Assembly: GCA_963845175.1 (NCBI GenBank)
Contig: CAWJRI010000012.1
Coordinates: forward strand, 13,928-77,927
Reading direction: 5' to 3'
DNA: 64,000 nt
Origin: an uncultured archaeon
Lineage (GTDB): Archaea > Nanobdellota > Nanobdellia > Woesearchaeales > CAIVOO01
Both the position numbers and the translations under genes were made by a program. How positions within the stretch are numbered: the stretch's first letter is position 1; each line of letters starts with the position of its first letter. Below, piece by piece: positions 4,210 through 21,876 of this stretch. The notes beneath the pieces are model-generated. The model had not been told where the DNA came from. It ran no database searches and was given only the letters and a program-made list of their open reading frames with translations.

Positions 4210-5383
4210 TTTTATTTTTCTTTCTCCTCCAGAACCAGACGAGGTTGAAGATAACAAGCAGAATTAATATGAGTATAAGGATGTTTGTTGTTGTCAAATA
4301 ACTTCCGAATCCACTTTCAAATCCTTTTGCAGGCATTTCTGTCTTTCCGCCCTTAAGTACATCTATTGTTCCATTTTTGTATGAATAATGCATTTCATTG
4401 CTTCCTATCTCATTAAATGACAGCGCGATGTTTATTTTATAGCTGCCTACCAGAAGATTTGCTGTGTTAAGGTAGCCTGTAATATTTTTGATTTCCCACG
4501 AGCTCAGCGTCTTTTCAGAAGCGGAAAAAGTCATTAATTTATAGCTCCCATTTAATACGCTGACATCGGCAAAAAGGTTTTCAACGGGGTCGTTCCATTC
4601 ACTTTGAACTTCCACATTGAATCCATTAACCTGCTTTTCATAAACCTCTTTCGTATAATCAATTATTTTGACATTTAAAATTCCTATCCTAAAATTATCT
4701 TGGGCAGTTGTTGATTTCTCATCGTACTGGACTGTCGCGACTGCCTTGTAATTGCCCTGCTTCTGGCCTTTTGTATTCCATTTTGCATTCAGGGTTGCGC
4801 TGCCATAAATATCCACTGGCTTTTCGTCTGTTGCCACAGAACCAACCTTTTCATTTCCGTTGTAAATATCAATGACTGCCTTTGCGCCATTAATCTTTTC
4901 TGTGCCCACATTATTAACTGTCACAACAAACTCGGCGTCCTTGCCAAGCTTGGCGTCTTTTGCGTCCAAAGACGCTTCAGCGTACTTTCCCGGATACTGA
5001 ACAAAAATTTCAATTGGAGATATAACCTCTCCCCTTGCACCCACAGGCCCGCCTGTTCCTGTGGATTCTGTTGCAATAAAACGTATTGCATGGTTACCTG
5101 GCTTTTCTATCTTTTCAGGAAACTTCAGGCTGACATTTACACTGCCGTATTCCCCTGGATTAAGGAAAACCTTGTTTGAACTCAGGGTTGCGTATTCTGC
5201 CAAATCACCTGAAAGCTGCAGGTCAACATCCATTGCACTGTTCATGTTGCTCCTAAGCCTATAGGTTATTTGTGTCTCAAGATTTGGCTTGAAGTTTATT
5301 TTAGCCTCTGCGGGGGAAACACCCACTGAATAAACTATTGGAAGAACCAGCAGGAATATTAAAAGCGCAGTTAATTTCTTCAT
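4187..5383 (-). CDS. 398-aa surface protein: signal peptide, ~3 CARDB-like beta-sandwich domains, C-terminal TM and a basic tail
   Basis: ORF track. N-terminus MKKLTALLIFLLVLPIVYS. The motif FVVTVNNVGTEKINGAKAVIDIY is CARDB-like. C-terminus LILILILLVIFNLVWFWRRKKNK. The N-terminal domain is paralogous to the protein at 21235..21876. Confidence 0.8.
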   Translation of the reverse strand: MKKLTALLIFLLVLPIVYSVGVSPAEAKINFKPNLETQITYRLRSNMNSAMDVDLQLSGDLAEYATLSSNKVFLNPGEYGSVNVSLKFPEKIEKPGNHAIRFIATESTGTGGPVGARGEVISPIEIFVQYPGKYAEASLDAKDAKLGKDAEFVVTVNNVGTEKINGAKAVIDIYNGNEKVGSVATDEKPVDIYGSATLNAKWNTKGQKQGNYKAVATVQYDEKSTTAQDNFRIGILNVKIIDYTKEVYEKQVNGFNVEVQSEWNDPVENLFADVSVLNGSYKLMTFSASEKTLSSWEIKNITGYLNTANLLVGSYKINIALSFNEIGSNEMHYSYKNGTIDVLKGGKTEMPAKGFESGFGSYLTTTNILILILILLVIFNLVWFWRRKKNKNEEETEI

Positions 5384-5421
5384 TATTGTTCTGTGTTTGT
5401 CAAGAATTTATATACTTTTCT

Positions 5422-5444
5422 AAAAAAAGAAAAAAAGAAAAAAA
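5422..5444 (-). terminator. Oligo-T tract (minus strand) immediately after the stop of the 199-aa gene; candidate archaeal intrinsic terminator
   Basis: The plus strand reads aaaaaaagaaaaaaagaaaaaaa, 4 nt downstream (in the gene's orientation) of the stop at 5449-5451. A TATA-like element (tatataaatt on the minus strand, about 5408-5417) for the next gene follows. Confidence 0.45.
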
Positions 5445-5448
5445 TACT

Positions 5449-6048
5449 TTACACCATTTTAACGGTGAAAGTCAGCACTACGTTTCTCTTACCTGTTGAT
5501 GCGTCAGACGGTACAACTAATTTAATTGACGCATTGACAGTGTCTGCAGAGTTGCCATATTGCAGGTTCGGGCATAATACTGCTTGTGCGGTGGTGCTTA
5601 TGTCATGGTATGCAAATAATGTTGCATTATTTGTGCAGGCGCCAACTTCTGTCTGCCAGCCCCTAGTATATATAGCTGGATTTGTTCCACCTAGCCATGA
5701 CGCAACTGCGGTCGGTTCTGAGACATTAAGTGATTCGTTCACTGTTCCATCATTCTCAATGTATATGTACTGCTTAGAATATGTCCAGCTTCCGCCTTTT
5801 GCTGCTGTATTGTTGCTTTCAAGAGTTGAACTTAGATTGCTTCCTAAAACCCTGCCGTTTCCGAAGTTAATGTTATATTTAACCAACACTGAAACAGATG
5901 ATGTAAGGTTTACAGAAACGTTTCCAGTTGTTCCCCTCCCTGTTACGTACAGGACACTTGGCTTTCCAAAGCTCATAATGCCTACTACAGAAACAACAAT
6001 TGCAATTCCCACTAGAATCGCCAATGTTTTGTTTGAAATGTCTGCCAT
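5449..6048 (-). CDS. 199-aa N-terminally anchored/secreted beta-rich protein; candidate major structural (fibre) subunit with a possible TasA/CARDB-like fold
   Basis: ORF track. Strong SD (GGAGGTGA) about 6 nt upstream of the ATG and its own oligo-T terminator. The N-terminal motif DIS.KT.AIL..IAIV.S is shared with the 77-aa upstream protein. The body is homologous to the C-terminal domain of the 562-aa adhesin. Confidence 0.8.
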   Translation of the reverse strand: MADISNKTLAILVGIAIVVSVVGIMSFGKPSVLYVTGRGTTGNVSVNLTSSVSVLVKYNINFGNGRVLGSNLSSTLESNNTAAKGGSWTYSKQYIYIENDGTVNESLNVSEPTAVASWLGGTNPAIYTRGWQTEVGACTNNATLFAYHDISTTAQAVLCPNLQYGNSADTVNASIKLVVPSDASTGKRNVVLTFTVKMV

Positions 6049-6063
6049 TTATTTCACCTCCTT

Positions 6064-6297
6064 TTATGTTATCTCGAGCGTAACTTTTCCAGTTGCTGAA
6101 GCAACTGTGTTTTCTCCCTGTTGTTGATCCCCATTTATAACCCCGATTGACACTTGGGCTGTGCCTTCAGGGTTTGTTCCTTTTACCACTATACCCTTAT
6201 CTAGCATCTTCCATGTAGCAATCGCAGAAAGAACAATAGCAATTACCAAAAGAATCGCCACTGTTTTTTTAGAGATATCGTCACTCATGTTTTGCAC
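6064..6297 (-). CDS. 77-aa protein with the same conserved N-terminal hydrophobic segment as the 199-aa protein, plus a short beta-rich tail
   Basis: ORF track. SD-like GAGGTG upstream. DDISKKTVAILLVIAIVLSAIA aligns with ADISNKTLAILVGIAIVVSVVG of the next gene. Confidence 0.6.
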   Translation of the reverse strand: MQNMSDDISKKTVAILLVIAIVLSAIATWKMLDKGIVVKGTNPEGTAQVSIGVINGDQQQGENTVASATGKVTLEIT

Positions 6298-6390: not shown

Positions 6391-6587
6391 GTATATAAAA
6401 TACTTACATTGTAAGTACAAATAAAAAGATTTATATATTCTATACTTACATTGTAAGTAAAACATAAATTTTTATATATAAAATACTTACATTGTAAGTA
6501 AAGAAACACAGAATTTTTATATAAGTACCTACATTGTAAGTACAAATAAAAAGATTTATATATTCTATACTTACATTGTAAGTAAAA
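6391..6587. promoter_or_regulatory. Array of five TATA-box-like elements, each followed by a 17-bp palindrome TAC[TC]TACA-T-TGTAAGTA (candidate operator)
   Basis: Palindromes at 6401-6417, 6443-6459, 6484-6500, 6526-6542 (one mismatch) and 6568-6584. Centre-to-centre spacing is 42, 41, 42 and 42 bp. Each is preceded within 2-5 nt by (T)TTATATA. The last palindrome ends 3 nt before the first HTH reading frame. Confidence 0.6.
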
Positions 6588-6767
6588 TTGATACCTACTG
6601 AGATTTTCAAAGACCGTACATTAAGTGTTCTCGAAGCTATTGTTGAATATCTCAAGGAGCAGAATGGGCTTTCTTATCACAAAATTGCTGAGATGCTAAA
6701 CAGAAATGACAGGACAGTCTGGACATGCTATCATCGCGCAAAGCAGAAAAGGAAAGTGACAGAATGA
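6588..6767 (+). CDS. Mini HTH protein, copy 1 (59 aa if initiated at TTG 6588); possibly leaderless or untranslated
   Basis: Encodes (L/M)IPTEIFKDRTLSVLEAIVEYLKEQNGLSYHKIAEMLNRNDRTVWTCYHRAKQKRKVTE. There is no ATG and no SD. Its stop overlaps the ATG of copy 2 (ATGA). Confidence 0.4.
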   Translation: MIPTEIFKDRTLSVLEAIVEYLKEQNGLSYHKIAEMLNRNDRTVWTCYHRAKQKRKVTE

Positions 6768-6924
6768 TACCTACTGAGATTTTCAAAGACCGTACATTAA
6801 GTGTTCTCGAAGCTATTGTTGAATATCTCAAGGAGCAGAATGGGCTTTCTTATCACAAAATTGCTGAGATGCTAAACAGAAATGACAGGACAGTCTGGAC
6901 ATGCTATCATCGCGCAAAGCAGAA
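6591..6924 (+). repeat. Perfect 158-bp direct repeat (6591-6748 = 6767-6924), period 176 bp, duplicating the mini-HTH gene
   Basis: Read directly from the sequence. I found no mismatches across the 158 bp. Confidence 0.9.
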
Positions 6925-6943
6925 GAGAAAGAAAAATGAATGA
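6764..6943 (+). CDS. Mini HTH DNA-binding protein, copy 2 (59 aa), sigma-70 region 4 / LuxR / Tfx-N-like helix-turn-helix
   Basis: MIPTEIF...LSYHKIAEMLNRNDRTVWTCYHRAKQKRKKNE fits the pattern LS..EIAE.L.....TV.....RA..K typical of sigma70_r4/LuxR-type HTH. An ATG with a purine-rich stretch upstream is present. The track ORF start at 6725 is an out-of-frame read-through of copy 1. Confidence 0.65.
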   Translation: MIPTEIFKDRTLSVLEAIVEYLKEQNGLSYHKIAEMLNRNDRTVWTCYHRAKQKRKKNE

Positions 6944-9900
6944 AGACAAATTAAGCGAGCTGGAGAAGAGGTTTGAGGAGTGCAAGCTCTCGCTTACTGA
7001 ATATGATATCTTAAAAGAGAAGCTAATCAAGAAATATGACTTGGCTGAGCCAGCCAAACCTCCAAGAATAGAAAAGAAGAAGCCAAGAAAGCTGGCGATT
7101 GGAATAGCTGTTTTGGTTGTCTTGATTGGATTATTCTTCTTGGTAAAGGCGCCTTCATTTACCGGCTTGTTTATGCAGAATGTAAGCAACGAGACAAATG
7201 CCAGTATTAATATAAGTGTGGTTTTGAATGAAAGTCAGATAAATGAAACTTTGAATGTTTCAATTAAGAACATTGGTTTAGAGAATATAACTGAAAATCT
7301 AACTTCAAATAATTCAATCAAGAATATTAGTTTAGAAAACAAAATTAAAAAAATCATTCCAAAAACTGCGTTGGACAAATTAAATGACAAATTCAATGGT
7401 ATCAATTTTGAAAAGGATAAAAACTACTTAAAAATAAAACACAAAAAAGCAGAAATAAGGCTAAAGGGCGCGAATGAGTCAGAGATAAAAGAAGTCCAGG
7501 TTGCAAGCGAAGATGAGATTAAGATAAAAAATAAAAAAGCTTCTTTCGGAACGCCTGTTGTCGCGATAAACTCAATAAACATAACAAATGCCACAATTAT
7601 TCTGGACAAGGAAGGGCCTGTCAATAGGATTGTCTACTGCCCTGACTGGAATTTTACTGGAGAAAGCTGCTCTGCGTGGGTTGAAACAAACATTCCATTC
7701 ACGGATTTGGGCGACAAGATAAGCTTTACAGTGACCCACTTCACAGCTTATGCAGGAAGCTTTGTGACAAATGTTGCTTCTGAATGGGATGCGGGATTGT
7801 TCACAAACACTGAGAAACTTGGCAATGTGACAATTCTTTCTGGAGCGAACACAACAGGAACATATTTGAGCTACGTCTACAGAAATGGGACAACAGCAAA
7901 CGACGCAGTTATTGTGGACTGGACGAAACTTGCGTGGGTGGATGATTACAACGGAACAACACATTATCAGGAAGCGCCGGTAAGAAGTGGAATGGTCGGC
8001 TACTGGAAACTGAACAACAACACGCTGGACAGTAGCACAAAGCACAACAATATGACAAGCTACGAGGCAACACCAACGACAGAGTGCGTTTTCGGAACAG
8101 GGAACTGCGCTTATGATTTTGGTGGAACAAGCAGTTATATGACTGCATTGAACAGTGCCGACTTTGATTTTGGCACAGGAGATTTTACAGTAGAGGTATG
8201 GGTTTATCCAACAGGAGATCCTTCTTCAATGGAGGAAATAATAAACAAGGCAGACTCAACTTCTTATGCACCTTTCAGGATTTTAAGAGTGCCAACAGGA
8301 GGCGGACTAAATTATTTAATGTCGAACACCGCGGGAAGTTGGGTAACATACGGAGGCGTATGGTACGGAGACAGCGCATACGCACCGCTAAACAAGTGGA
8401 CACACATCGTGCTGACAAGAAATTCGGGTACAGCACACTTCTACGTGAACGGAGTGCAGGTTTCGAGTATGTCAGCAAACTACCAAGTCTATAATGACGC
8501 AAGCGAAGTCGCAATAGGCAGACTCCTGCATTACGGAACACCCTACTGGTTCCAGGGCAAAATAGACAATGTAATTATTTACAAAGACAAGGGACTAACG
8601 CAAGACGAAGTAAAAGAGGAATATGCAAGAGGCGCGAAAGAGCTGAACATAACTCTGGCGTACAGAACAACTAATCTGACGCAGGAAGTTTACAACACAA
8701 GCGGGCTGCTTGGCTGGTGGAAGCTGGACGAGAACGCGACAGACTTCTCAGGAAACGGCAACAACGGGAACATTGTCGGAGCAGCAAAAATAGGCGGATA
8801 TTTCAACAACAGCTACATGTTTGACCTTGCGTACCTCAAATACATAGACGTGGGAACAGGGCTGAACGCGCAAACTGTGATGACTCTCGAAGCCTGGGTA
8901 AACCCTCACAGTGGATATTCACATATAGGGGGCATAATATCAAAGTATCAACAGGGAGCAAGCCCAGCAGGAAGCTATTACATGGACATAGATGACGCAC
9001 TGCATCCCAACTATGCATTCTACGGGCTGTCTCCTTCATGCGCAGGGTCAGTAACAAGTTACACATTCCCGACAGATAAATGGACTTACTATGCAATTAC
9101 GTACGACGGAAGCAAGGTAATAACATACATCAACGGAAACGATATAGATGAAAGAGCCTGCTCCGGAACAATAACACAGTCGTCAGCAACAGTATGGATA
9201 GGAAACCTAAACCAGCCTGCATATTATTATAACTACTATGGCAAAATCGACAGCGCGAGAGTTTACAACAGAAGCCTTTCAGCAGAGGAAATAAAATACA
9301 ACTACTGGCATGCAAACTTTACAGGCAGAAACTTCGGAGCTTACAAGGCAGAAAGCCCAGCAACAATAAACCAAAACGCAAAATACTTCCAGTACAAGGC
9401 AAAACTAGTCAGCAACGCAAGTGGGTACACTCCATTCCTAGAAAAAACTGAAGCAAATTTCTCATTTACATCTGGTAACACTGCTCCGACGCAGGGAACT
9501 CCTAAATTAAATTCAACTCACAGAACAAACAAGTCAAATGAAAATCTGACTGTCTATAACACTTCAACCTACGATGCTGATGGTGATCATGTTACAAACA
9601 TAATCAACTGGTACAGAAACGGAAATTCAATAACTGCGCTGAACATGCCTTTCAATTCCAACAATTCAGCTGGAGCTGGAAAGACAAAAGATTATTCTGG
9701 AAATGGAAATAATGGAACTATTAATGGAGCGACGTGGAGTGCAACATCTGGATTTGACGGAAAAGGAGCATACAGCTTTGACGGAACAAACGACTACATT
9801 ACAATTCCACATTCATCTTCAATAAATATTATCTCAGGCCAAGCAACTTATTCAATGTGGCTCAAAAGAGGCAGGTCTGGAGCTACTGAAGTATTGTTTG

Positions 9901-12900
9901 ACAAGAACTCTGTAACACCAGAGCCAGTTTATATCAGGTTCAGCAATAATGACCGCATTTATATTCAGATATTTGCCAACGATGGCTCTTATCATTATTT
10001 TTTTGCTTCAAGCACTTCTACGATTACTGATACGGACTGGCATTTATTAGATGTAGTCTTTGATTATGATACTTGGACAAATTCAAAAATTTACATTGAT
10101 GGGGTGGCGGAAACATTATACAGCCCAACTCAATTTGGAACGCAAATTGCATTAACAAACACAGGGATACTTACTATTGGCTCACCTAATTCTGGTGCAG
10201 ATTATAATTTCAACGGCAAAATAGACAATGTAAGAATCTACAACAGAGCTTTGTCAGCAGCGCAGATAAAAGCATTGTACAACAACAGAACAGATAGAAT
10301 TGTCTCGCAGGAATTAAATGCAGGAGAAATCTGGAAAGCGTCGATCACGCCGAATGATGGTTACGCTGACGGACTGACAAAGTTCTCGAACAACGTAACA
10401 ATACTCAGCTCAGCTAATACAGCACCTACACAAGGGACACCAATACTGAATTCAACGCACGGCACAAATAGGTCAAATGAAAATCTGACTGTCTATAACA
10501 CTTCAACCTACGATGCTGATGGTGATCATGTTACAAACATAATCAACTGGTACAGAAACGGAAATTCAATAACTGCGCTGAACATGCCTTTCAATTCCAA
10601 CAATTCAGCTGGAGCTGGAAAGACAAAAGATTATTCTGGAAATGGAAATAATGGAACTATTAATGGAGCGACGTGGAGTGCAACATCTGGATTTGACGGA
10701 AAAGGAGCATACAGCTTTGACGGAAGCAATGATATAACTGTAAGTGATTCATCATCTCTTAAATTAGGAAGAGGGTCATTCACAATAAGTTTATGGCTCA
10801 AAACTGGTTATCATGGATATCAATTAATTCTTGGAAAATATAATCCTACTTATCCATATGAAGATTATGAAATTAGTATGTTAGATGCTTCAACAATAAG
10901 AGGCTGTGCAATAGACTGTGGCACGAGTGCTTGTGGATTTGGTTCTACAAGGTTCTGTCTTCCAGTAACTTTCTCGATTGCAGATAATCAATGGCATTAT
11001 ATTACTTATACGCGAAGTGGTAGTTTAGAAACATTCTATATTGATGGCGTTTCTTTAGGAACACTTACTCAAGGACCATTGAATACGGATTCTACAGGAG
11101 TGCTTCATATCGGCAGTACATCTTTTAGCGGAAAAATAGACAACATAATCATTTACAATAGAAGTCTGACAGCGCAAGAAATCAAGGCATTGTACAACAA
11201 TAGGACAGATAGGATTGTTTCGCAGGAGTTAAATGCAGGAGATATTTGGAAAGCGGCAGTCACCCCCAATGACGGCTACACAGACGGACTCACAAAATTC
11301 TCAAACAACATAACAATACTCAGCGCAGCTAATACGGCACCTACACAGGGAACGCCTAAATTAAATTCAACCCACGGCACAAACAGATCAAATGAAAACC
11401 TGACTGTTTACAATGTTTCGACTTATGATGCAGAAGGTGATCCTGTCACAAACATAATCAACTGGTACAAAAACGGAAATTCAATTATGGCTCTGAACAT
11501 GCCGTTCAACTCAAACAATTCAGCCGGAGCTGGGAAGACAAAAGATTATTCTGGACATGGAAATAATGGAACTGTTAATGGCGCAACCTGGATTTCAAAT
11601 GGAGGGTTTGACGGAAAAGGAGCTTACAGCTTTGACGGAAGCGATTATGTAAGCTGTGGAAATAGAGCAAAAACTGTATTAAATGATAGGCTTACTCTTG
11701 AAGCTTGGATTAAGCCGACTGTAGGAGCAACCAGTCCGATAGTTGGGAAAGACTCCCAATCTCCTGGCTGGGAAAGCTATGCAATGTCACTTTCAACTGC
11801 TGGAGAAGTTGTAATGCAACTTACGAATGGTGCAACTTACTCTTATGTTAAATCAAGCGGGGTTGTATCTAACGGAGTATGGTCACATGTTGCAGTAACT
11901 TGGCAATATACAGGAGCAGGAGGAATGACTGATGTTTCAATTTACATAAATGGAGTTAAGCAAACAAATTTCCTTGTTGCTCAAACAGGAGAGCCATCTA
12001 CTTTATCAGCAGCAACAGGAGATTTAAGAATTGGAATGCTCGCAAACCAGGCATATTATTTCACAGGCAAAATAGACAATGTAAGAATCTATAACAGAAG
12101 CCTGTCAGCAGAACAGATAAAAGCATTGTACCAGAATAGGACAGATAGGATTGTTTCGCAGGAGTTAAATGCAGGAGATATTTGGAAAGCGGCAGTCACC
12201 CCCAATGATGGTTATTCAGATGGACTGACAAAGTTCTCAAATAATGTGACAATACGCGCCCCAGCTGTAGCTAACACAGCATCTACACAAGGGACACCAA
12301 TACTGAATTCAACGCACGGCACAAATAGGTCAAATGAAAACCTGACTGTTTACAATGTTTCGACTTATGATGCAGAAGGTGATCCTGTTACAAACATAAT
12401 CAACTGGTACAGGAATGGAACTTCGATTGCTGTGCTAAATATGCCGTTCAACTCAAACAATTCAGCTGGAGCTGGAAAGACAAAGGATTACTCAGGCTTA
12501 GGAAATAATGGAACTGTTAATGGAGCAAAATGGATTCCAAATGGAGGGTTTGACGGAAAAGGTACATACAGCTTCGACGGAAGCGGAACTTACATAGATT
12601 TAGGAACAGGATTAAATGTACAAACCGAAATGACATTTGAAGCGTGGGTGATGCCACATTATCCATTTCCACAAATAGGAGCAATACTATCAAAGTTTAA
12701 TCAATACGGAAGTCCACCAGGAAGCTACTATTTTACAATAGATGGGAATTTACACCCGAATTACTATATTTATGGACCAGCTTGTTCGGGACAGGTAAAT
12801 AGTTATACATTCCCGACAGAACAATGGACGCACTACGCTGTAACGTATAATGGAAGTAAAGCAATAACATATATTAACGGACAGAAAGTAGATGAAATAA

Positions 12901-15900
12901 GCTGTTCGGGTGCGATACAGCATTCAGCGTCAAGCGTATGGATAGGGAATTTAAATCAGCCAGCATATTATTACAAATATTTCGGAAAAATAGACAGCGT
13001 AAGATTATACAATACATCTTTGTCAGCGGCGCAGATAAAAGCATTGTACCAGAATAGGACAGATAGGATTGTTTCGCAGGAGTTAAATGCAGGAGATATT
13101 TGGAAAGCGGCAGTCACCCCCAATGATGGTTATTCAGATGGACTGACAAAGTTCTCAAATAATGTGACAATACGCGCCCCAGCTGTAGCTAACACAGCAC
13201 CTACACAAGGGACACCAATACTGAATTCAACGCACGGCACAAATAGGTCAAATGAAAACCTGACTGTTTACAATGTTTCGACTTATGATGCAGAAGGTGA
13301 TCCTGTTACAAACATAATCAACTGGTACAGGAATGGAACTTCGATTGCTGTGCTAAATATGCCGTTCAACTCAAACAATTCAGCTGGAGCTGGAAAGACA
13401 AAGGATTACTCAGGCTTAGGAAATAATGGAACTGTTAATGGAGCAACCTGGAATGCAACAGCTGGATTCGATGGGAAAGGCGCCTACAGCTTTAATGGTA
13501 ATACTAATAATTACATATCCTGGACTTATACAAAACCTCAAAACAGCTTTACTATGGTGGCATGGGTCAAAGCAACTACAACGCACGAAATTGATTCTTT
13601 ATCGGATCCTCTTGGTGGAGTAAGCGGTGAAAAATATGTATTCTGGCCAAATCATGAAGCTAATAGTAGTGCTGGTGCTGGACTTTCTGTCGGAACAAAT
13701 GGTATAACTGTATACGAACATGGAGATTGGTACCTGCCTGCAGTTGCCGAATATATTGGTAACTTGTCAACACATTGGCACCACATTGCCATAGTTTACG
13801 CCAACAAGCAACCTAAAATTTATTTAGATGGCGCTTTAGTAAGTACTGGCGGAATATCCACGAGGACGATAGTTTATGCTCCAACCCAAATGGGTTCAGG
13901 TTCTTATGGTGGTTTCCCAGGTTTAATAGAAGATGTCCGTATCTACAACAGTTCATTATCAGCAGTAGAAATAAAAGCATTGTACAACAACAGGACAGAC
14001 AGGATTGTCTCGCAGGAATTAAATGTAGGAGATATTTGGAAAGCGTCAATCACGCCGAACGACGGCTACAGCGACGGGCTGACAAAGTTCTCAAACAATA
14101 TAACAATCAAAGCTAACATACCGCCGACACAGGGAACGCCGATATTGAACTCAAGCAAGAGGTTGAACAGATCAAATGAAAACCTGACTGTCTACAATGT
14201 CTCAACCTATGATGCTGACAGCGATCCTGTTACAAACATAATCAACTGGTACAGAAACGGAAATTCAATCATGGTTCTGAACATGCCGTTCAATTCGAAC
14301 AATTCAGCCGGAGCTGGGAAGACAAAAGATTATTCTGGACATGGAAATAATGGAACTGTTAGTGGAGCAACCTGGATTTCAGATGGAGGGTTTGACGGGA
14401 AAGGCGCATACAGATTCAATGATAGTAAGTCAGATTTCATCAATCTTGGAACAGGCAGTTCATTAACAATTGCAGATAAAATCACTTTAGAAGCATGGAT
14501 CTACCTTCCGGACTTAACAGGATATCATCCAATTATCTCAAAACAAGGATACAGTGTGTTAAGATACAATTACGCGTTTGGAACAAGTGGTGCAAATATT
14601 TACTTGTGGCTTGATGCAGAGGGTGGGGGGACAGCCGGAGAGATTATAACAACAGACAATCCTATCACAACAACAGGCTGGCATCACATAGTTGCCTCAT
14701 ATGATGGAAGTTACGAAGCCATTTATCTGGATGGTGTGGACGTAAAGCATCAAGTAGTATCTATAACGCTGGCAAATTCAGGCACACATGCCTGCTACAT
14801 AGGAAGAGAGGATTACAATACTGGAATCTCGGGGCTTTTCAACGGAAAGATAGATTCAGCAAGAATTTATCATCGAGCTTTGACTGCGCAGCAGATAAAA
14901 GCGTTGTACAACAACAGGACAGACAAGATTGTTTCGCAGGAATTAAGTGCTGGAGATGTTTGGAAAGCATCAATCACGCCGAATGACGGATACAGCGACG
15001 GGCTGACAAAGTTCTCAAACAATGTAACAATACTAAGTTCAGCAGCAGCAAATACACCGCCAACACAGGGAACGCCGATACTAAATTCTACTCACAGAAC
15101 AAATAAGTCGAATGAGAATCTGACTGTCTACAATGTCTCAACCTATGATGCTGACAGCGATCCTGTTACAAACATAATCAACTGGTACAGAAACGGAAAT
15201 TCAATCATGGTTCTGAACATGCCGTTCAATTCGAACAATTCAGCCGGAGCTGGGAAGACAAAAGATTATTCTGGACATGGAAATAATGGAACTGTCGATG
15301 GAGCGACGTGGAGTGCAACAGCTGGATTTGACGGGAAGGGTGCATACATGTTTAGCAGCAGTTATATTGAAAGAGCCTACGACCCTGACTTTACTCCAGG
15401 AACCAAAAGCTGGACAGTTGCGGCATGGATAAAAGTTCCGCTTACTGAGGGTCCACCGTCGTTCATTGCAGACTGGTATAGATGCGGCGCTAATCCTTCA
15501 TGCGGTAGTCCTGATTCTGCATTATACAGTCTAAGCATAATTAATAACAACAAAGTAAATTGGCATGTAAGAGATGATAATAGTAATGATGTATCACTAA
15601 CAAGTTCTTCAGCTGTTGCAGATAATAATTGGCATTATATAGTTGGAACTTTTGACCCAACAAATGACTTAACAAAGTTATATATAGATGGAGCTGAAGT
15701 TGCGACAAATAATACACCCTTAACTTCTCTTTCAGACGGCGGTGTGTCAATACCATTAGAAATTGGACGACGTTTTGTAACAGGATGGGGTTCACCAAGT
15801 GGTTATTTGTACGGCAAAATAGACGATGTAAGAATCTATAGCAGAGCGCTGACAGCTGCGCAGATAAAAGCGTTGTACAACAACAGAACAGATAGGATTG

Positions 15901-18900
15901 ATTCGCAGGAATTAAAAGTTGGAGAGACTTGGAATGCGAGCGTTACGCCGAACGACGGCTACGCAGATGGGTTGACAGAATTCAGCAATTCGGTCACTAT
16001 TAAGTCGTCAACCCCTCCAAACATAACGAAGGTACAGCTGCATGACAAAAACAAAAAGCCGATAACAAACAAGACGCTCGTAAAAGCAGGGGAAAATATA
16101 ACAATAAATGTGACTGTGGCGCAGACAGAGGGAACAGTGAGCAGCGTCTGGATAAAAGTATGGAAAACTGTTGCAAACGCATTTACAACAATCTTTGAAG
16201 GAGTCCTAAATTTAATTTCTGGCAATCTGTGGCAGATAACAATAACAACAAATGGAAGCTGGACGCATGGCACGAATTACACCATCTACGCGAATGACAC
16301 AACTAATATAATAACGTCAAGAAATGAGAAAGTGTTTGTCAATAATCTGCCAACACAGGGTGTGCCGGCATTAAGTTCTCTCCTTAGAAGAAATGGAACA
16401 AATGAAAACCTAACTGTTTACAATACATCTACATATGACAGAGACAAAGATCCTGTTACAAACATAATCAACTGGTACAGGAATGGAACTTCGATTGCTA
16501 TGCTGAACATGCCGTTCAATTCGAACAATTCAGCCGGAGCTGGGAAGACAAAAGATTATTCTGGACATGGAAATAATGGAACTGTCGATGGAGCGACGTG
16601 GAGTGCAACAGCTGGATTTGACGGGAAGGGTGCATACAGCTTCACTGGAACAAATGGAGAATACATAGATGCAGGAAACGTGCCAGGAATAAATGGAGCA
16701 TCTGCATTGTCAGTTGAAGCCTGGGTTTATGTTAATGCATTTTCAGGCGATAATGGAATTGTTGCGAAAAGAGTTGCAGGCGTTGGAGAGGGCTTTCAGC
16801 TTATAAGTTATGATAGTGGAGGCAATCATTTCCATTGGTATCCAGAAACAACCGGAACAAATAATGTTGCTTCTTCAGTTAAAAATAAAGTTATCAATAC
16901 TTGGTATCATGTCGTTGGAACTTATGATGGTTCTTACGCAAGGATTTATGTTAATGGCGTTCTTGAGGATACACAAGTGGTTACGGGAACAATAATATCT
17001 TCAGCAGCGTCAATATGGATAGGAAATTATTATAGCACAGACCACCCTTTTGACGGCAAAATAGACAGCATAAGAATATACAATAGAGCGCTAAGTCCGG
17101 CGCAGATAAAGGCATTATACAACAACAGAACAGATTTAATTGTCGCTGAAGAAACAAAAAGCAAGGAAACATGGAAGGCGTGCATAACGCCGAACGACGG
17201 CTACGGAGACGGACCAACAAACTGCTCAAACAATCTCACAATAAATACAGCTCCAACGGTTGTACTGGCAGGCCCTGCCAATAACTCTGTTTGGAATATC
17301 CCGCCAACCTTCAGCTGGACTTATTCTGACAGCGACAATGATGTCCAGCAAGAATACCATATTATTATGGACAATGATAGTGACTTCTCCTCGCCGGAGA
17401 TAAATAGCACGGTAGTGAGCAGCAACAATTACACGCAGATAATGCCAAACAATCCAGGCAGTTATTACTGGAAAGTTCAGGTTTACGACGGCAAGGAATG
17501 GAGCAACTTCTCTGGCACAAGAAAGTTCACAACTACATGCCTAAGCCCATACAATGATATGTACATTAATTCAAACACAAAGCTGTGCAGCGGAACTTTC
17601 CATATTAATGACAGCTACCCTGATGGCGTCTTGATTTTAAATGCATCAGACATAATCTTAGACTGCAACAATGCAACTTTAATTGGAAATGGAGCGAACT
17701 ATGGGATTTATGTCAATCAAAAAAACAATATTACAATCAAGAACTGCATATTGAAAAATTATAATTATGGGATCTATTCTTGGTATTCGAACAATTCCAA
17801 AATAATAAATAATAAATTTTCCAACAGCACAATATATTTGTCTTCTTCACATTATTTCAACATAATAAGCAATTATATAAGCGCAAGTGGAAAACTCATA
17901 GACCTTGAGGGTTCTCGTCATACAAATATTTTCAACAATAAGATAAGCAAGAACCTATCTATTGATTTGTTTACCGGAAGTGGCAGCGGTGGACAGATTT
18001 ATGCATATCATTCACCCTACACTTATGCGCTAAATAACACATTCAAATATTCTGGAGGCATAAGGTTTTCCTGGAGCGACAACAGCAGCGCAGTCAACAA
18101 TACAGTTACTGATTTTAGCACAGCTTTTGCTGGCTTGATTGGCGTAGATGGTTCTAATGGGATTCTTTTCGAAGGAAACAATATAACAAACACAATGGGG
18201 CTGCTTGGTGCATTATATGCAGATGGTTCAAAAAATGTAATAATTAAAAGAAACAAAGTAGAGAACAACTTGCTCATGATGCTAACAATTACAAACTGCA
18301 ATAATATAACCGTCAGAGACAATAATCTAATGTCGAACAAAGACGCATGGTACATAAAGAACATATCTGCTATTTACGAAGAAATTACAAACCAGACTTT
18401 CCCGACATCCCTTGGAATTGACGGTTCGTCGTCATTCTTAATGACTTTGTTACAGCAGCTTTTCAGCCATGTTGAATCTGGCGCATTTAATATAAGTGGA
18501 GGAAATATAACGGGCGTTAATCTGGATGCTATGTCTTTATTGAAAATTCTCGGTCCGGTTTATTCGACAAATGTCAACAATATGACCTTAGTTAGCAACA
18601 ATCTAACCTTTGACAGCTTTAAAATTATGGCGAATCTGAGAGCTAACAAAGTTGATGTTAAGCGCGATGATGTTTCATTTGGAGCAGCTGTCGCGTACAT
18701 CGAAGGAAGTGATAATATTATCGAAAATAACTCTTTCATATTCAACAATAGCGGAGTTTCAATACACAGCTATGGAAATGTCACAGACATAGAAAACAAC
18801 AGATTAAACATAATTCTGGGTTCCTTCGCCCTGCAGGGAAATTCGAACAGAGTCTACCATAACAAGATGGCAATTGAAAAAAGCGGCATTGACCTGAATT

Positions 18901-21242
18901 CGCATACAAATACAACAATTGAAAATTCAACAGCTGTTAACGGCAAAGTATTCAGTATGAATATTTTAGGAAATAATAATGTTGCAAGCAATAATGATGT
19001 GCTTATCAAGGATTTGAATATAAATATAACTACCCATGGAAATAATGTTGACTTAAAAAAACTGTCAATCAATAATCTAACCATTGCGTTAGTTATTGTC
19101 GGAGGCTCGAACAACACCATCGAATCAAATAATGCAAAATATCATAATGCAAAATTATGGATCAGATCAGACGCAACAGATTATACAAAAATACATGACA
19201 CTGTTTTTGACTATAATTTTGTCTCATCCATTGGGCTAATGAATGCCAATAAAACCACAGTAAAAAACAATGTATTGACAATGGAAAATGCCGGCTTCGG
19301 CCTTGATATTATTCATGATGCATTTTATTCGACAAATATCACAAGGCTAATTTTCGGAGGAGTCGGCCTTATTAGCTCAAACAACAACACCATAGTCAAC
19401 AATTCGTTCATAGGCAACTCGCCTACTGCAAGCATCTCATTAACTCCCGCAAACGCAAAAAACAACACAATCAGCATAATTTATACGCTTCTGCTTGCAA
19501 TGCATAACTCCACTAATAATTATTTCGCAAACAACACAATTGTAAACAACACAATAAGTGAATCATTGGCTTCGCTGTTCAGCCCTTCGCTAGGGAACAA
19601 ACTAAGCATCCAGAAGCCAGGTATTTTGATTGACTCAGACAACAACAAAATATTTTCAAACAAAGTTTACAACAGCGGAAACTTTGATGCCTGGATAAAT
19701 GGAACAAACAACTCGTTCAGGCTTAACAGCTTTCTTTCAAATGGCATCGGCGGAAAGAAAAGCTTCTACGGTTCATACTCGCCGATGCACTACAATGGAG
19801 AGTATTTCAACGATACATATGGTTTTGTCGTCATAGGATCCGGCATTCAGGTTGTAACAGTAGACAACACATTAATAACACCAGCAAATGGCACCAACAA
19901 TTATGATCTTATGCTGTTCAACGACACAGTGGGTGCACTTGGAAATGGAACTGGAAAAATGTCAACCGCATTCTGTATAGGATGTTATGCTGGCGGCATA
20001 ATCAATTGCAGCGCTTTAGATGCTGCGCTTAGCTCTCCAGGTGCCTGCCGCTATTACAAACACAATGCGCTTGTAGGCCAGGGCGCTGGACAGGATTATT
20101 TGTTCAATGACATCTTCAACTCCACTTATTATGTGATACATAGCTACACTTCGCCACCTTCGATAAATTTGAAGGACTTCAGCAATAATTACTGCGTCGC
20201 TGGCGAAGGAAACTTCTATGAAGAATCGATACCTATGTCTAGAATCGGCTCGAATGACTGCGGTCTCAGCAATTTGACAAGCCCAACCGCAGGGAACTAC
20301 AACGACGGAACAGTAAAAATAAACTGGACAAGGCAGAGCGCCATGAGCACTGTAACCTATGACATCTTGCTTAACAGAACATGGACAGGAGTTGAAACGC
20401 TCCTTGCAAGAACTGTGGGGCTTAACTACCTCTGGAATACCACTGGCTACGAACCAGGCATTTACAGCATAAGGCTTGTTCCATGGATAGTCGGAAGCAG
20501 GCATAACGCGACAAATGCAAAAAGTGAAGAATTTGACCTAAACGGCACGATTCCTGCGACACCTTTGTTAATTTCGCCGGCAAACGATTCAACTCTGATC
20601 GACAGGACACCGACGATGAACTGGACAACTGTAGCAGGCAGCGGAATCACGTATCAGCTGCTGGTTGATAATGACACATCATTCGCTTCACCCGAAATAA
20701 ACGTCACAATCTCTGACACAAATTACACGCCGCTGACTGACATGAAGTTTGGAACGCACAACTGGAAAGTAAGGGCTTACAGAGGGGTTTTATATAGCAG
20801 TTTCAGCACGCAGAGGAATTTCACAATAATCACAAGCATCAGCTGCTCGCTGCCTGTGGCTGCTATTAATTTTGGAAATATAGATAAGGATGCAATTAAG
20901 AATACACAGAGCGAGAATCCTGCACCAATGATTGTCCGGAACAACGGAAACCTGAAACTCAACATTTCAATCAATTCAACTGACTTGTGGAAGTCACAAC
21001 CGAATCCGTCATCCTACTACCAGTTCAGGATCGACAAGAATGAAAGCAATGCATGGGATTCTGCGCTTAATGATTCATGGCACAATCTAGTCAAGACAAC
21101 TCCGCTGGTGGCAATCAGCGGACTGAAATACCATAGCGAAAGCAATTCAGCGGAAATCGAGCTTCAGATAACAGGACCGCCTGATGAAGGTGCAGGATCA
21201 AAGAAATCACAATTAAATGTGTGGTGCAGCCAAGATGAATAA
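6936..21242 (+). CDS. Giant (4,768 aa) N-terminally anchored surface protein: SHOCT-like cytoplasmic head, one TM, a sequon-rich stalk, ~10 LamG (concanavalin-A-like lectin) modules, Ig/FN3-like domains, a right-handed parallel beta-helix (PbH1) region and a C-terminal beta-sandwich
   Basis: A single uninterrupted ORF. Start taken at ATG 6936 (MNEDKLSELEKRFEE), because the first 18 aa of the track ORF are the HTH gene in another frame. TM is LAIGIAVLVVLIGLFFLV. LamG hallmarks (WTH.A.TY.G....YI[ND]G, GKIDNVRIYNR.LS..[EQ]IKALY) recur 10 times. Beta-helix repeats (N.TIKNC.L.N...GIY...S.NN.I.NN) span about 17540-19760. N-x-S/T sequons are abundant throughout. Confidence 0.9.
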   Translation: MNEDKLSELEKRFEECKLSLTEYDILKEKLIKKYDLAEPAKPPRIEKKKPRKLAIGIAVLVVLIGLFFLVKAPSFTGLFMQNVSNETNASINISVVLNESQINETLNVSIKNIGLENITENLTSNNSIKNISLENKIKKIIPKTALDKLNDKFNGINFEKDKNYLKIKHKKAEIRLKGANESEIKEVQVASEDEIKIKNKKASFGTPVVAINSINITNATIILDKEGPVNRIVYCPDWNFTGESCSAWVETNIPFTDLGDKISFTVTHFTAYAGSFVTNVASEWDAGLFTNTEKLGNVTILSGANTTGTYLSYVYRNGTTANDAVIVDWTKLAWVDDYNGTTHYQEAPVRSGMVGYWKLNNNTLDSSTKHNNMTSYEATPTTECVFGTGNCAYDFGGTSSYMTALNSADFDFGTGDFTVEVWVYPTGDPSSMEEIINKADSTSYAPFRILRVPTGGGLNYLMSNTAGSWVTYGGVWYGDSAYAPLNKWTHIVLTRNSGTAHFYVNGVQVSSMSANYQVYNDASEVAIGRLLHYGTPYWFQGKIDNVIIYKDKGLTQDEVKEEYARGAKELNITLAYRTTNLTQEVYNTSGLLGWWKLDENATDFSGNGNNGNIVGAAKIGGYFNNSYMFDLAYLKYIDVGTGLNAQTVMTLEAWVNPHSGYSHIGGIISKYQQGASPAGSYYMDIDDALHPNYAFYGLSPSCAGSVTSYTFPTDKWTYYAITYDGSKVITYINGNDIDERACSGTITQSSATVWIGNLNQPAYYYNYYGKIDSARVYNRSLSAEEIKYNYWHANFTGRNFGAYKAESPATINQNAKYFQYKAKLVSNASGYTPFLEKTEANFSFTSGNTAPTQGTPKLNSTHRTNKSNENLTVYNTSTYDADGDHVTNIINWYRNGNSITALNMPFNSNNSAGAGKTKDYSGNGNNGTINGATWSATSGFDGKGAYSFDGTNDYITIPHSSSINIISGQATYSMWLKRGRSGATEVLFDKNSVTPEPVYIRFSNNDRIYIQIFANDGSYHYFFASSTSTITDTDWHLLDVVFDYDTWTNSKIYIDGVAETLYSPTQFGTQIALTNTGILTIGSPNSGADYNFNGKIDNVRIYNRALSAAQIKALYNNRTDRIVSQELNAGEIWKASITPNDGYADGLTKFSNNVTILSSANTAPTQGTPILNSTHGTNRSNENLTVYNTSTYDADGDHVTNIINWYRNGNSITALNMPFNSNNSAGAGKTKDYSGNGNNGTINGATWSATSGFDGKGAYSFDGSNDITVSDSSSLKLGRGSFTISLWLKTGYHGYQLILGKYNPTYPYEDYEISMLDASTIRGCAIDCGTSACGFGSTRFCLPVTFSIADNQWHYITYTRSGSLETFYIDGVSLGTLTQGPLNTDSTGVLHIGSTSFSGKIDNIIIYNRSLTAQEIKALYNNRTDRIVSQELNAGDIWKAAVTPNDGYTDGLTKFSNNITILSAANTAPTQGTPKLNSTHGTNRSNENLTVYNVSTYDAEGDPVTNIINWYKNGNSIMALNMPFNSNNSAGAGKTKDYSGHGNNGTVNGATWISNGGFDGKGAYSFDGSDYVSCGNRAKTVLNDRLTLEAWIKPTVGATSPIVGKDSQSPGWESYAMSLSTAGEVVMQLTNGATYSYVKSSGVVSNGVWSHVAVTWQYTGAGGMTDVSIYINGVKQTNFLVAQTGEPSTLSAATGDLRIGMLANQAYYFTGKIDNVRIYNRSLSAEQIKALYQNRTDRIVSQELNAGDIWKAAVTPNDGYSDGLTKFSNNVTIRAPAVANTASTQGTPILNSTHGTNRSNENLTVYNVSTYDAEGDPVTNIINWYRNGTSIAVLNMPFNSNNSAGAGKTKDYSGLGNNGTVNGAKWIPNGGFDGKGTYSFDGSGTYIDLGTGLNVQTEMTFEAWVMPHYPFPQIGAILSKFNQYGSPPGSYYFTIDGNLHPNYYIYGPACSGQVNSYTFPTEQWTHYAVTYNGSKAITYINGQKVDEISCSGAIQHSASSVWIGNLNQPAYYYKYFGKIDSVRLYNTSLSAAQIKALYQNRTDRIVSQELNAGDIWKAAVTPNDGYSDGLTKFSNNVTIRAPAVANTAPTQGTPILNSTHGTNRSNENLTVYNVSTYDAEGDPVTNIINWYRNGTSIAVLNMPFNSNNSAGAGKTKDYSGLGNNGTVNGATWNATAGFDGKGAYSFNGNTNNYISWTYTKPQNSFTMVAWVKATTTHEIDSLSDPLGGVSGEKYVFWPNHEANSSAGAGLSVGTNGITVYEHGDWYLPAVAEYIGNLSTHWHHIAIVYANKQPKIYLDGALVSTGGISTRTIVYAPTQMGSGSYGGFPGLIEDVRIYNSSLSAVEIKALYNNRTDRIVSQELNVGDIWKASITPNDGYSDGLTKFSNNITIKANIPPTQGTPILNSSKRLNRSNENLTVYNVSTYDADSDPVTNIINWYRNGNSIMVLNMPFNSNNSAGAGKTKDYSGHGNNGTVSGATWISDGGFDGKGAYRFNDSKSDFINLGTGSSLTIADKITLEAWIYLPDLTGYHPIISKQGYSVLRYNYAFGTSGANIYLWLDAEGGGTAGEIITTDNPITTTGWHHIVASYDGSYEAIYLDGVDVKHQVVSITLANSGTHACYIGREDYNTGISGLFNGKIDSARIYHRALTAQQIKALYNNRTDKIVSQELSAGDVWKASITPNDGYSDGLTKFSNNVTILSSAAANTPPTQGTPILNSTHRTNKSNENLTVYNVSTYDADSDPVTNIINWYRNGNSIMVLNMPFNSNNSAGAGKTKDYSGHGNNGTVDGATWSATAGFDGKGAYMFSSSYIERAYDPDFTPGTKSWTVAAWIKVPLTEGPPSFIADWYRCGANPSCGSPDSALYSLSIINNNKVNWHVRDDNSNDVSLTSSSAVADNNWHYIVGTFDPTNDLTKLYIDGAEVATNNTPLTSLSDGGVSIPLEIGRRFVTGWGSPSGYLYGKIDDVRIYSRALTAAQIKALYNNRTDRIDSQELKVGETWNASVTPNDGYADGLTEFSNSVTIKSSTPPNITKVQLHDKNKKPITNKTLVKAGENITINVTVAQTEGTVSSVWIKVWKTVANAFTTIFEGVLNLISGNLWQITITTNGSWTHGTNYTIYANDTTNIITSRNEKVFVNNLPTQGVPALSSLLRRNGTNENLTVYNTSTYDRDKDPVTNIINWYRNGTSIAMLNMPFNSNNSAGAGKTKDYSGHGNNGTVDGATWSATAGFDGKGAYSFTGTNGEYIDAGNVPGINGASALSVEAWVYVNAFSGDNGIVAKRVAGVGEGFQLISYDSGGNHFHWYPETTGTNNVASSVKNKVINTWYHVVGTYDGSYARIYVNGVLEDTQVVTGTIISSAASIWIGNYYSTDHPFDGKIDSIRIYNRALSPAQIKALYNNRTDLIVAEETKSKETWKACITPNDGYGDGPTNCSNNLTINTAPTVVLAGPANNSVWNIPPTFSWTYSDSDNDVQQEYHIIMDNDSDFSSPEINSTVVSSNNYTQIMPNNPGSYYWKVQVYDGKEWSNFSGTRKFTTTCLSPYNDMYINSNTKLCSGTFHINDSYPDGVLILNASDIILDCNNATLIGNGANYGIYVNQKNNITIKNCILKNYNYGIYSWYSNNSKIINNKFSNSTIYLSSSHYFNIISNYISASGKLIDLEGSRHTNIFNNKISKNLSIDLFTGSGSGGQIYAYHSPYTYALNNTFKYSGGIRFSWSDNSSAVNNTVTDFSTAFAGLIGVDGSNGILFEGNNITNTMGLLGALYADGSKNVIIKRNKVENNLLMMLTITNCNNITVRDNNLMSNKDAWYIKNISAIYEEITNQTFPTSLGIDGSSSFLMTLLQQLFSHVESGAFNISGGNITGVNLDAMSLLKILGPVYSTNVNNMTLVSNNLTFDSFKIMANLRANKVDVKRDDVSFGAAVAYIEGSDNIIENNSFIFNNSGVSIHSYGNVTDIENNRLNIILGSFALQGNSNRVYHNKMAIEKSGIDLNSHTNTTIENSTAVNGKVFSMNILGNNNVASNNDVLIKDLNINITTHGNNVDLKKLSINNLTIALVIVGGSNNTIESNNAKYHNAKLWIRSDATDYTKIHDTVFDYNFVSSIGLMNANKTTVKNNVLTMENAGFGLDIIHDAFYSTNITRLIFGGVGLISSNNNTIVNNSFIGNSPTASISLTPANAKNNTISIIYTLLLAMHNSTNNYFANNTIVNNTISESLASLFSPSLGNKLSIQKPGILIDSDNNKIFSNKVYNSGNFDAWINGTNNSFRLNSFLSNGIGGKKSFYGSYSPMHYNGEYFNDTYGFVVIGSGIQVVTVDNTLITPANGTNNYDLMLFNDTVGALGNGTGKMSTAFCIGCYAGGIINCSALDAALSSPGACRYYKHNALVGQGAGQDYLFNDIFNSTYYVIHSYTSPPSINLKDFSNNYCVAGEGNFYEESIPMSRIGSNDCGLSNLTSPTAGNYNDGTVKINWTRQSAMSTVTYDILLNRTWTGVETLLARTVGLNYLWNTTGYEPGIYSIRLVPWIVGSRHNATNAKSEEFDLNGTIPATPLLISPANDSTLIDRTPTMNWTTVAGSGITYQLLVDNDTSFASPEINVTISDTNYTPLTDMKFGTHNWKVRAYRGVLYSSFSTQRNFTIITSISCSLPVAAINFGNIDKDAIKNTQSENPAPMIVRNNGNLKLNISINSTDLWKSQPNPSSYYQFRIDKNESNAWDSALNDSWHNLVKTTPLVAISGLKYHSESNSAEIELQITGPPDEGAGSKKSQLNVWCSQDE
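9476..17240 (+). repeat. Eight tandem ~0.9-1.3 kb coding modules (small beta-sandwich split by a LamG domain) with 100%-identical nucleotide blocks in the linkers and divergent LamG cores
   Basis: Module starts (N[TI][AP]PTQGTP) are near 9476, 10413, 11328, 12270, 13190, 14113, 15050 and 16340. Identical blocks: 9533-9786 = 10472-10725; 12114-12528 = 13032-13446 (1 mismatch); 14184-14359 = 15120-15295; 15213-15348 = 16503-16638. Confidence 0.9.
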
Positions 21243-21876
21243 GCTGAACAGAACAGGGCTTGTGATGTTTTTGCTAGCTGTGCTTGTGTGCAGCTCTGCG
21301 CTTGCACTTGGGATAGGAACAAACAACAAGGTAATTAAATATGAGCCGAATGTTCAAAAATCAGCCAGTGTCTATATAATAAATGATGAGCATAAAGACA
21401 TGAATGTCGAAATATCTGCTGCTGGCTCGCTTGCAGAGTATGCGACAGTTCCGAACACATTATTTGTTTCGGCTTCAGAGGACATAAAGAAGTTCAGCAT
21501 TGATTTCACGCTGCCGAAAGGCCTGGAAGAAGGCGACTTAAAAGTGATTGCCTCCGAAGCAACTATTCAGAACAGTCAGATAGGCGCGAAGGTGCACGCA
21601 ATTGCAGAGGTAAAGATAGATTTCTCAACAGGTGCAGCAAAAGAAGAAAATGCAAATGTTAAGAAAGTCAATCTTGGGGAGCATCTGACAAATGTGCAAG
21701 AAGCTGATCCTTTCGGCATTAAGAAAGGGGCTGCTGCAAAATACAACATAGTAAAGGCGCTGCTAATACCCTCAATAGCAATAATTACAATAGTTATCGT
21801 AGATTTAATATTTTATTACAGAAGGAGAAAGGCAAAGCGTGGCCAGGAGCGTTTTAGCGAGCTTGGGAAGCTTTAA
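21235..21876 (+). CDS. 213-aa surface protein: signal peptide, one beta-sandwich domain, C-terminal TM and a basic tail; paralog of the N-terminal domain of the 398-aa protein
   Basis: The ATG at 21235 overlaps the giant gene's stop by 8 nt (ATGAATAA). AAGSLAEYATVPNTLFV aligns with LSGDLAEYATLSSNKVFL (398-aa protein). C-terminus IAIITIVIVDLIFYYRRRKAKR. Confidence 0.75.
   Translation: MNKLNRTGLVMFLLAVLVCSSALALGIGTNNKVIKYEPNVQKSASVYIINDEHKDMNVEISAAGSLAEYATVPNTLFVSASEDIKKFSIDFTLPKGLEEGDLKVIASEATIQNSQIGAKVHAIAEVKIDFSTGAAKEENANVKKVNLGEHLTNVQEADPFGIKKGAAAKYNIVKALLIPSIAIITIVIVDLIFYYRRRKAKRGQERFSELGKL

Follow-up and report, generated by a model that had tools for sequence, protein, structure and literature searches.

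Probable intragenic concerted evolution of module frames around divergent LamG cores in a giant surface-protein gene of a DPANN archaeon

In periscope-type bacterial surface proteins (i.e. SasG/Aap, Rib and the SHIRT arrays of Sgo_0707), identity of the repeat DNA has been proposed to drive intragenic recombination (PMC8201768), and segmental gene conversion with conserved flanks underlies several antigenic-variation systems (PMC2169797, PMC3828179). Among DPANN archaea, large LamG proteins are probable attachment factors (e.g. in Nanohaloarchaeota; PMC7443923), diversity-generating retroelements (DGRs) occur in Nanoarchaeota and other lineages (PMC5006420, PMC5758913) and the surface proteins of Nanoarchaeota exhibit elevated non-synonymous polymorphism (PMC6142677). 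A stretch of 64,000 nucleotides (nt) from an uncultured archaeon (contig CAWJRI010000012.1, positions 13,928 to 77,927; hereafter the window, whose own numbering is used throughout) contains a giant surface-protein gene (6936-21242, forward strand, 4768 amino acids [aa]) in which eight tandem modules each combine a conserved frame with a divergent LamG core. Analysis of this array provided good support for the view that its modules evolve in concert within one gene, together with evidence that cassettes turn over, which makes the locus an archaeal form of repeat-driven surface-protein variation.

The array resembles the periscope-type proteins in that it belongs to a long protein of the cell surface in which domains recur in tandem and repeats share stretches of very high DNA identity. 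In the bacterial proteins, however, near-identity extends over the whole repeat and leads to variation in stalk length, whereas here, in an archaeon, only the frame is homogenised and it encloses different putative ligand-binding cores; near-identity of whole repeats in DNA was not observed, as the cores are 20-40% identical in aa sequence and saturated in synonymous divergence (dS). The pilE/pilS system of Neisseria, vlsE of Borrelia and MgPa/MgPar of Mycoplasma genitalium likewise possess conserved brackets that give the homology for non-reciprocal transfer and yield mosaic products. In those systems, the expressed gene receives its variable part at high frequency from silent donors located elsewhere, whilst in the present case a single expressed gene supplies both donor and recipient modules and the recent tracts cover the conserved part. 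Searches of both strands of the window with hidden Markov models (HMMs) of the frame detected no silent donor cassettes, there being no match outside 9240-17246. The protein also resembles the LamG/ConA-like surface proteins of DPANN archaea, which are large, rich in sequons, specific to strains and either secreted or anchored, contain LamG domains and have a proposed role in host attachment. DGRs are another way in which small symbiotic archaea diversify ligand-binding surface proteins, but these utilize a reverse transcriptase and a template repeat (TR), adenine-templated positions and a C-type-lectin fold, in contrast to the LamG fold found here. An exact-repeat search for a near-identical pair resembling a TR and a variable repeat (VR) returned no long repeats other than the frame tracts; a reverse transcriptase was not sought in every open reading frame (ORF). 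In the literature searched, no description was found of a nested host-domain/LamG module, of conversion confined to a frame or of different cores in orthologous frames.

The eight modules and shared frame proposed in a preliminary description of this DNA were recovered as an array of 301-318 aa units (~305 aa) spanning 9477-17246 within one ORF. All features of the array lie on the forward strand. From N to C terminus, each module consists of the N-half of a host domain (residues 1-59), the conserved first LamG strands (residues 60-100), the variable LamG core, the conserved last LamG strand and helix (GKID...NNRTD, 27 aa) and the C-half of the host domain (37 aa). In module M1 (9477-10406), these parts correspond to 9477-9653, 9654-9776, 9777-10214, 10215-10295 and 10296-10406, respectively. 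The remaining modules are M2 (10416-11321, core 10716-11129), M3 (11331-12257, core 11631-12065), M4 (12273-13175, core 12573-12983), M5 (13191-14111, core 13491-13919), M6 (14115-15035, core 14415-14843), M7 (15051-16004, core 15351-15812) and M8 (16341-17246, core 16641-17054). M7 and M8 are separated by a unique Ig-like insert of ~112 aa (16005-16340), and the frame of M8 is the most divergent of the eight. Mean aa identity among modules was 85% in the N flank (i.e. the first 100 residues) and 77% in the C flank (i.e. the last 64 residues). The cores, of 137-154 aa, had a mean aa identity of 28% (range 20-40%), in agreement with the strong divergence claimed for them. The constant blocks that had been called linkers are not linkers, being made up of both halves of the host domain together with the LamG strands conserved at either end.

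An exact-repeat search reproduced each of the repeat lengths reported earlier. The N flanks of M1 and M2 share an exact tract of 254 nt (T1, 9533-9786 and 10472-10725) with a 3' end lying three codons inside the core. The longest tract (T2, 12114-12528 and 13032-13446) extends for 415 nt with one mismatch and contains exact pieces of 168 nt (12114-12281 and 13032-13199) and 246 nt (12283-12528 and 13201-13446). This tract had been assigned to modules 4 and 5; its length was correct, but the sequences that match are the M3-M4 and M4-M5 junctions, such that T2 covers a C flank, the linker and the next N flank, i.e. the whole junction between three different cores. Exact tracts of 176 nt and 136 nt were found for M6/M7 (T3, 14184-14359 and 15120-15295) and M7/M8 (T4, 15213-15348 and 16503-16638), respectively. 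T3 and T4 overlap by 83 nt, and this stretch is common to M6, M7 and M8. Shorter exact tracts were present in M2/M5 (65 nt) and in the C flanks of M2, M3 and M4 (74 nt).

The significance of these tracts was assessed using a GENECONV-like test with permutation of polymorphic sites and global P values. The strongest signals (P = 2e-4) were obtained for M1/M2, for M4/M5 in the N flank and for M3/M4 in the C flank. M6/M7 (P = 0.002) and M7/M8 (P = 0.024) were also significant, as were M2/M5 and the C flanks of M2/M3 and M2/M4 (P = 0.019). A PHI-type homoplasy test gave P ≤ 0.001 for each flank. Two modules switch partner within a single flank, bearing out the earlier report of identical blocks with shifting partners. 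The N flank of M2 is M4/M5-like in alignment columns 5-66 and identical to M1 in columns 57-300, with an overlap of 10 nt at the switch; its first 60 nt exhibit 1-2 differences from M4/M5 and 17 from M1, followed by none from M1 over 240 nt. Segment distance matrices showed that the N flank of M7 matches M6 exactly on its left and M8 exactly on its right. Each of the four longest independent tracts occurs between adjacent modules, an arrangement with a chance probability of C(7,4)/C(28,4) = 0.0017. Tracts were longer than divergence predicts and the nearest paralogue changed along the unit, as is characteristic of concerted evolution.

Divergence estimates separated selection on the protein from exchange of DNA. 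Outside the tracts, flanks had a ratio of non-synonymous divergence (dN) to dS of ~0.1, and non-partner pairs had a dS of 0.4-1.4 and a dN of 0.06-0.28, indicating that purifying selection accounts for constancy of the protein and not for nucleotide identity. In these regions, the frame is kept by ordinary purifying selection and not by identity at the DNA level. For the cores, dN between modules was ~1. The tracts were judged not to stem from simple unequal crossover, which would have produced a second copy of a core as well. As no core is present in duplicate and homology is lost at the cores, non-crossover gene conversion is the economical reading. Of the two processes offered in the preliminary description, gene conversion is thus upheld by the permutation and homoplasy tests, the shifting partners and the dS values, whilst unequal recombination in its simple form is not.

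The timing of these events was examined by comparison with L001 (i.e. uncultured archaeon bin-2373), a contig of a short-read metagenome-assembled genome (MAG) and the only close relative found. Synteny with L001 extends over the 3' end of the giant gene, a small membrane ORF, pyrG, secF and secD, and the CTP synthases are 94% identical in aa sequence. Values of dS between the window and L001 were 0.60 for pyrG, 0.63 for secF, 0.82 for secD, 0.77 for the Ig insert and 0.60 for the part of the gene following the array. Flanks at orthologous positions had a dS of 1.1-3.1, and partner flanks within the window a dS of 0.12-0.46. In N-flank columns 166-245, the window copies exhibited 0-12 differences from each other and 10-16 from L001; in C-flank columns 49-144, these numbers were 0-22 and 24-33, respectively. 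Orthology is retained in the frame of M8 and at the end of the M7 C flank, where paralogues are not closer than orthologues. An M1-type core is present in both genomes with 65% aa identity, a dN of 0.26 and a dS of 1.0 (i.e. dN/dS of ~0.26), indicating that cores are not hypermutating and hence that the 20-40% identity among cores long pre-dates the split between the window and L001. The frames are 'younger' than the cores they enclose, which is the hallmark of concerted evolution. A single mismatch over 415 nt, set against a nucleotide divergence of 11-17% between the genomes, suggests that the latest conversion events were very recent.

Evidence for turnover of cores came from the last modules of L001. 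Positional orthology was established by the Ig insert, which is conserved in L001 (~88% aa identity), by the end of the M7 C flank, which has 8 differences from L001 module 'La' versus 19-22 from other window modules, and by the last L001 module, which is orthologous to M8 and carries M8-type signatures on both sides of its core (NNLPTQG, YDRD and IVAEET.SKE.W.AC...CSNN.TIN). The core of this last module is 65% identical to the core of M1 and 21% identical to that of M8, and the core of the L001 position-7 module is ≤31% identical to every core of the window. Judged from these alignments, positions 7 and 8 have orthologous frames with evidently different cores in the two genomes. Replacement of cores via recombination in both flanks (i.e. 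gap repair) would fit these differences. The earlier suggestion that the frames act as recombination handles for core shuffling is consistent with this one case, but outside the tracts it is purifying selection that keeps the frame. The L001 contig starts 165 nt upstream of a module N flank; a contig break in the array is expected if near-identical frames in that genome also disrupt short-read assembly. A metagenome scan with the post-array region gave no match, and a scan with the module alignment detected relatives of ≤45% identity plus a few short partial matches of 46-58%. Protein searches with the M1 module, and with the Ig insert, M8 and next domain, returned full-length or near-full-length matches of at best ≤44% and a few short partial matches of 48-60%.

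The architecture supported by these data is one in which each module comprises a beta-rich host domain of ~95 aa split by a LamG domain inserted in one loop. Frame HMMs identified uninterrupted homologues that lack a LamG and in which N-flank positions 1-53/64 adjoin C-flank positions 28-63. These domains (L004, 1433-1717 and 4526-4813; L011, 7439-7723) occur in genes of DPANN relatives that also carry LamG-bearing modules. The spliced halves of the window modules align colinearly with uninterrupted DPANN domains at ~50% identity with a gap of 4 residues. N-halves and C-halves number eight each, no unpaired C-half precedes M1 and the Ig insert separates the M7 C-half from the M8 N-half; both the equal counts and this placement fit a nested module. 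An AlphaFold2 model of M1, generated from a 40-sequence alignment, had a pLDDT of 89.4 and a pTM of 0.89, with pLDDT values of 95-98 in both host halves. The top Foldseek matches of this model in the PDB were the Hc-N domain of clostridial neurotoxins and the lectin domains of trans-sialidases (E ~1e-9), with an alignment to LamG-type jelly rolls spanning ~240 of 310 residues of M1. The LamG domain of M1 is accordingly modelled as a jelly-roll beta-sandwich. The uninterrupted homologues, the colinear alignment and the model scores support the original view of a nested LamG, in which the two host halves would pack into one small beta-sandwich. The host domain had no Pfam match at E ≤ 10 and no sequence or profile match in the PDB, indicating a family of small domains in the surface proteins of DPANN archaea that had not been described.

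Tandem arrays of this module were found in many DPANN genomes, and one single-amplified genome (SAG) contains at least 17 copies. In distant relatives, flanks are 50-66% and cores ~30% identical in aa sequence, whilst N-flank identity reaches 84% in L001 too. Modules 2 and 6 of L003 (6347-7207 versus 10001-10861) exhibit the reverse of the window pattern, with cores of 92% and N flanks of 79% nucleotide identity, which suggests, from sequence comparison, that a core was copied into another frame. A free-standing LamG domain upstream of the array (LamG-B, 8706-9308, forward strand) is 61% identical in aa sequence and 72% identical in DNA (over 246 nt) to the M4 core (12573-13064), a similarity exceeding that of any pair of framed cores (≤40%); the same core type therefore occurs both with and without the host-domain frame. 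Together, LamG-B and the L003 pair hint that cores move independently of frames. Whole-module duplicates were present in L006 (modules 15 and 16) and L002 (modules 1 and 4). One contig with DPANN-type modules (L007, CAZKVI010000014.1) had been binned in a 'Methanosarcinales' MAG, which could represent mis-binning or a hint at host association.

These observations are likely to be explained by homology-limited intragenic gene conversion that homogenises the frames, with the same homology allowing replacement of cores. The host-domain halves plus the first and last LamG strands would constitute the conserved frame, and the central ~140 aa of each LamG would be an old, module-specific core. Short non-reciprocal events would repeatedly copy 60-415 nt of frame from module to module, most simply via out-of-register pairing with a neighbouring module on the sister or a second genome copy. 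A tract would run only through homologous sequence and would stop at the non-homologous core, such that frames would evolve in concert whilst cores would keep their identities. Homology on both sides of every core would permit double recombination or gap repair to replace one core by another, and flank-mediated replacement would leave related genomes with different cores in orthologous frames. The molecular route (i.e. misaligned pairing and gap repair) and any selective value of shuffling are what we infer from these patterns.

Several observations count against this explanation. Evidence for core turnover derives from two module positions in one pair of genomes, and the short-read contig of L001 ends inside the array, where a chimeric join could have been introduced. 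Exact repeats of ≥40 nt are few in L002-L011, i.e. ten more distant genomes with this module, and none reaches the 136-415 nt of the window, whilst near-identity of flanks only was found in none of L002-L030; strong homogenisation is therefore either lineage-specific or an artefact. Near-identical flanks could become exactly identical through consensus polishing or through the way in which an assembler treats repeats. Flanks that are really ~80-95% identical might, through bubble-popping, polishing with multi-mapped reads and chimeric graph paths, have given rise to both the blocks and the mosaics, with the L001 'core swap' being a mis-join via a shared flank. Such an origin would suit blocks longer than typical k-mers and read lengths, the break of the L001 contig within the array and the scarcity of exact repeats in other genomes with the module. 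We nevertheless consider it unlikely, as transitions are abrupt, from ~30% to 0% divergence (e.g. for M1/M2, 17 differences in 60 nt then none in 240 nt), and a mis-join in a k-mer graph would need more than the 10 nt by which the M5-like part of M2 overlaps its M1-like part. The window contains no N and the 14.3-kb reading frame is intact. Additionally, the partly decayed tracts of 65 and 74 nt and the graded dS values of partner flanks resemble events of different ages, and the terminal module of L001, with M8-type signatures flanking an M1-type core, would require two mis-joins.

Biological alternatives to gene conversion were also considered. If the modules were old duplicates without recombination, with frames under purifying selection and cores free to diverge or positively selected, the identical stretches would be the most constrained ones. 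The low dN/dS of the flanks and the conserved-frame/divergent-core pattern in all distant relatives agree with this account, which still holds for the background conservation of the frame. Protein constraint, however, leaves synonymous differences, and the same columns have a dS of 0.4-1.4 in non-partner pairs and 0 in partner pairs; the permutation and PHI tests reject the account for the tracts, and as a general explanation it is extremely improbable. Recent duplications of whole modules, with foreign cores arriving later from other LamG genes of the genome or through horizontal transfer, find parallels in the duplicates of L006 and L002, in the L003 pair with its cores more alike than its N flanks and in genomes that carry two such loci. 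This scenario is judged quite improbable, since each tract would need one duplication and one or two core replacements, tracts that start and end within a flank with a different partner on each side (i.e. in M2 and M7) would be left unexplained and there are no donor copies elsewhere in the window. DGR-type hypermutation was rejected as there is no TR/VR pair, the cores differ in length and the M1-type core is under purifying selection between the two genomes.

The array is one part of a larger protein. The gene is a single ORF of 14.3 kb that is open from 6882, but its start codon is probably the ATG at 6936 (MNEDKL...) rather than the mechanical ORF start, to judge from the sequence; the first 18 codons of the open frame (6882-6935) lie inside an upstream ORF in another reading frame. 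A single N-terminal hydrophobic transmembrane (TM) anchor is encoded at 7092-7145, and the protein contains 177 N-X-S/T sequons versus 98 expected from its composition. Pfam matches comprised 10 Laminin_G_3 stretches (PF13385; 730.9 bits versus a curated cut-off of 27.6), a right-handed beta-helix region and Ig-like domains. LamG-A (7989-8624), identified by a profile match, is, like LamG-B, free-standing without a host-domain frame. The post-array part (17247-21239, forward strand) encodes an Ig_Rha78A_N-like domain (17247-17540), the right-handed beta-helix region and C-terminal Ig-like domains, and is 66-74% identical to L001. Nearby genes encode CTP synthase (pyrG), SecF/SecD, Nop56/58, fibrillarin, RFC, several aminoacyl-tRNA synthetases and a type-IV-secretion-type ATPase, and all relatives retrieved from genome collections were DPANN archaea (Woesearchaeota, Nanoarchaeota and Pacearchaeota; MAGs and SAGs). 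Based on the archaeal genes among these neighbours and the taxonomy of the relatives, the locus is classed as a chromosomal surface-protein gene of a DPANN archaeon of Woesearchaeota/Nanoarchaeota type. The giant protein is probably a membrane-anchored, heavily N-glycosylated adhesin and would act in host recognition. Rfam and tRNA scans across the window were empty.

Directly upstream of the giant gene, a near-palindrome, TACTTACATTGTAAGTA, occurs in five copies at ~42-nt spacing (6392-6588) and nowhere else in the window, with 0.01 copies expected by chance; these repeats look like an operator array. They are followed by two tandem copies of an ORF for a 59-aa helix-turn-helix protein with Sigma70_r4_2/HTH_23 matches (6588-6943; 176-nt unit, 98% identical), the second of which overlaps the probable start codon at 6936. 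This pair is a candidate for a dedicated regulator and represents another very recent duplication at the locus. Genes flanking the giant gene (4187-6297, reverse strand; 21217-21876, forward strand) resemble further envelope proteins. The ORFs at 5449-6048 and 6064-6297 (reverse strand) have pilin-like N termini of class-III-signal type, whilst those at 4187-5383 (reverse strand) and 21217-21876 (forward strand) both contain a signal peptide, the motif 'LAEYAT' and a TM segment at the C terminus. No Pfam match was obtained for any of these four envelope-like ORFs.

DPANN archaea need to attach physically to the cells of their hosts, and it is their giant LamG proteins that are usually proposed to recognise the host. 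Apart from the action of DGRs, little is known about how such proteins diversify. A far-reaching version of the present findings, in which frames are kept as recombination handles and the array is a self-contained cassette-exchange device of a genome-reduced episymbiotic archaeon with cores reshuffled, replaced, gained or lost at appreciable frequency in populations, is doubtful. If correct, host or glycan specificity would be changed without silent donor loci or a retroelement, in an archaeal intragenic analogue of antigenic variation. The nested host-domain/LamG module occurs widely among Woesearchaeota and Nanoarchaeota, and the boundaries defined here would serve for annotating and expressing single lectin cores. 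Should long reads agree with the tracts, active homologous recombination would be shaping the adhesin repertoires of a minimal-genome lineage.

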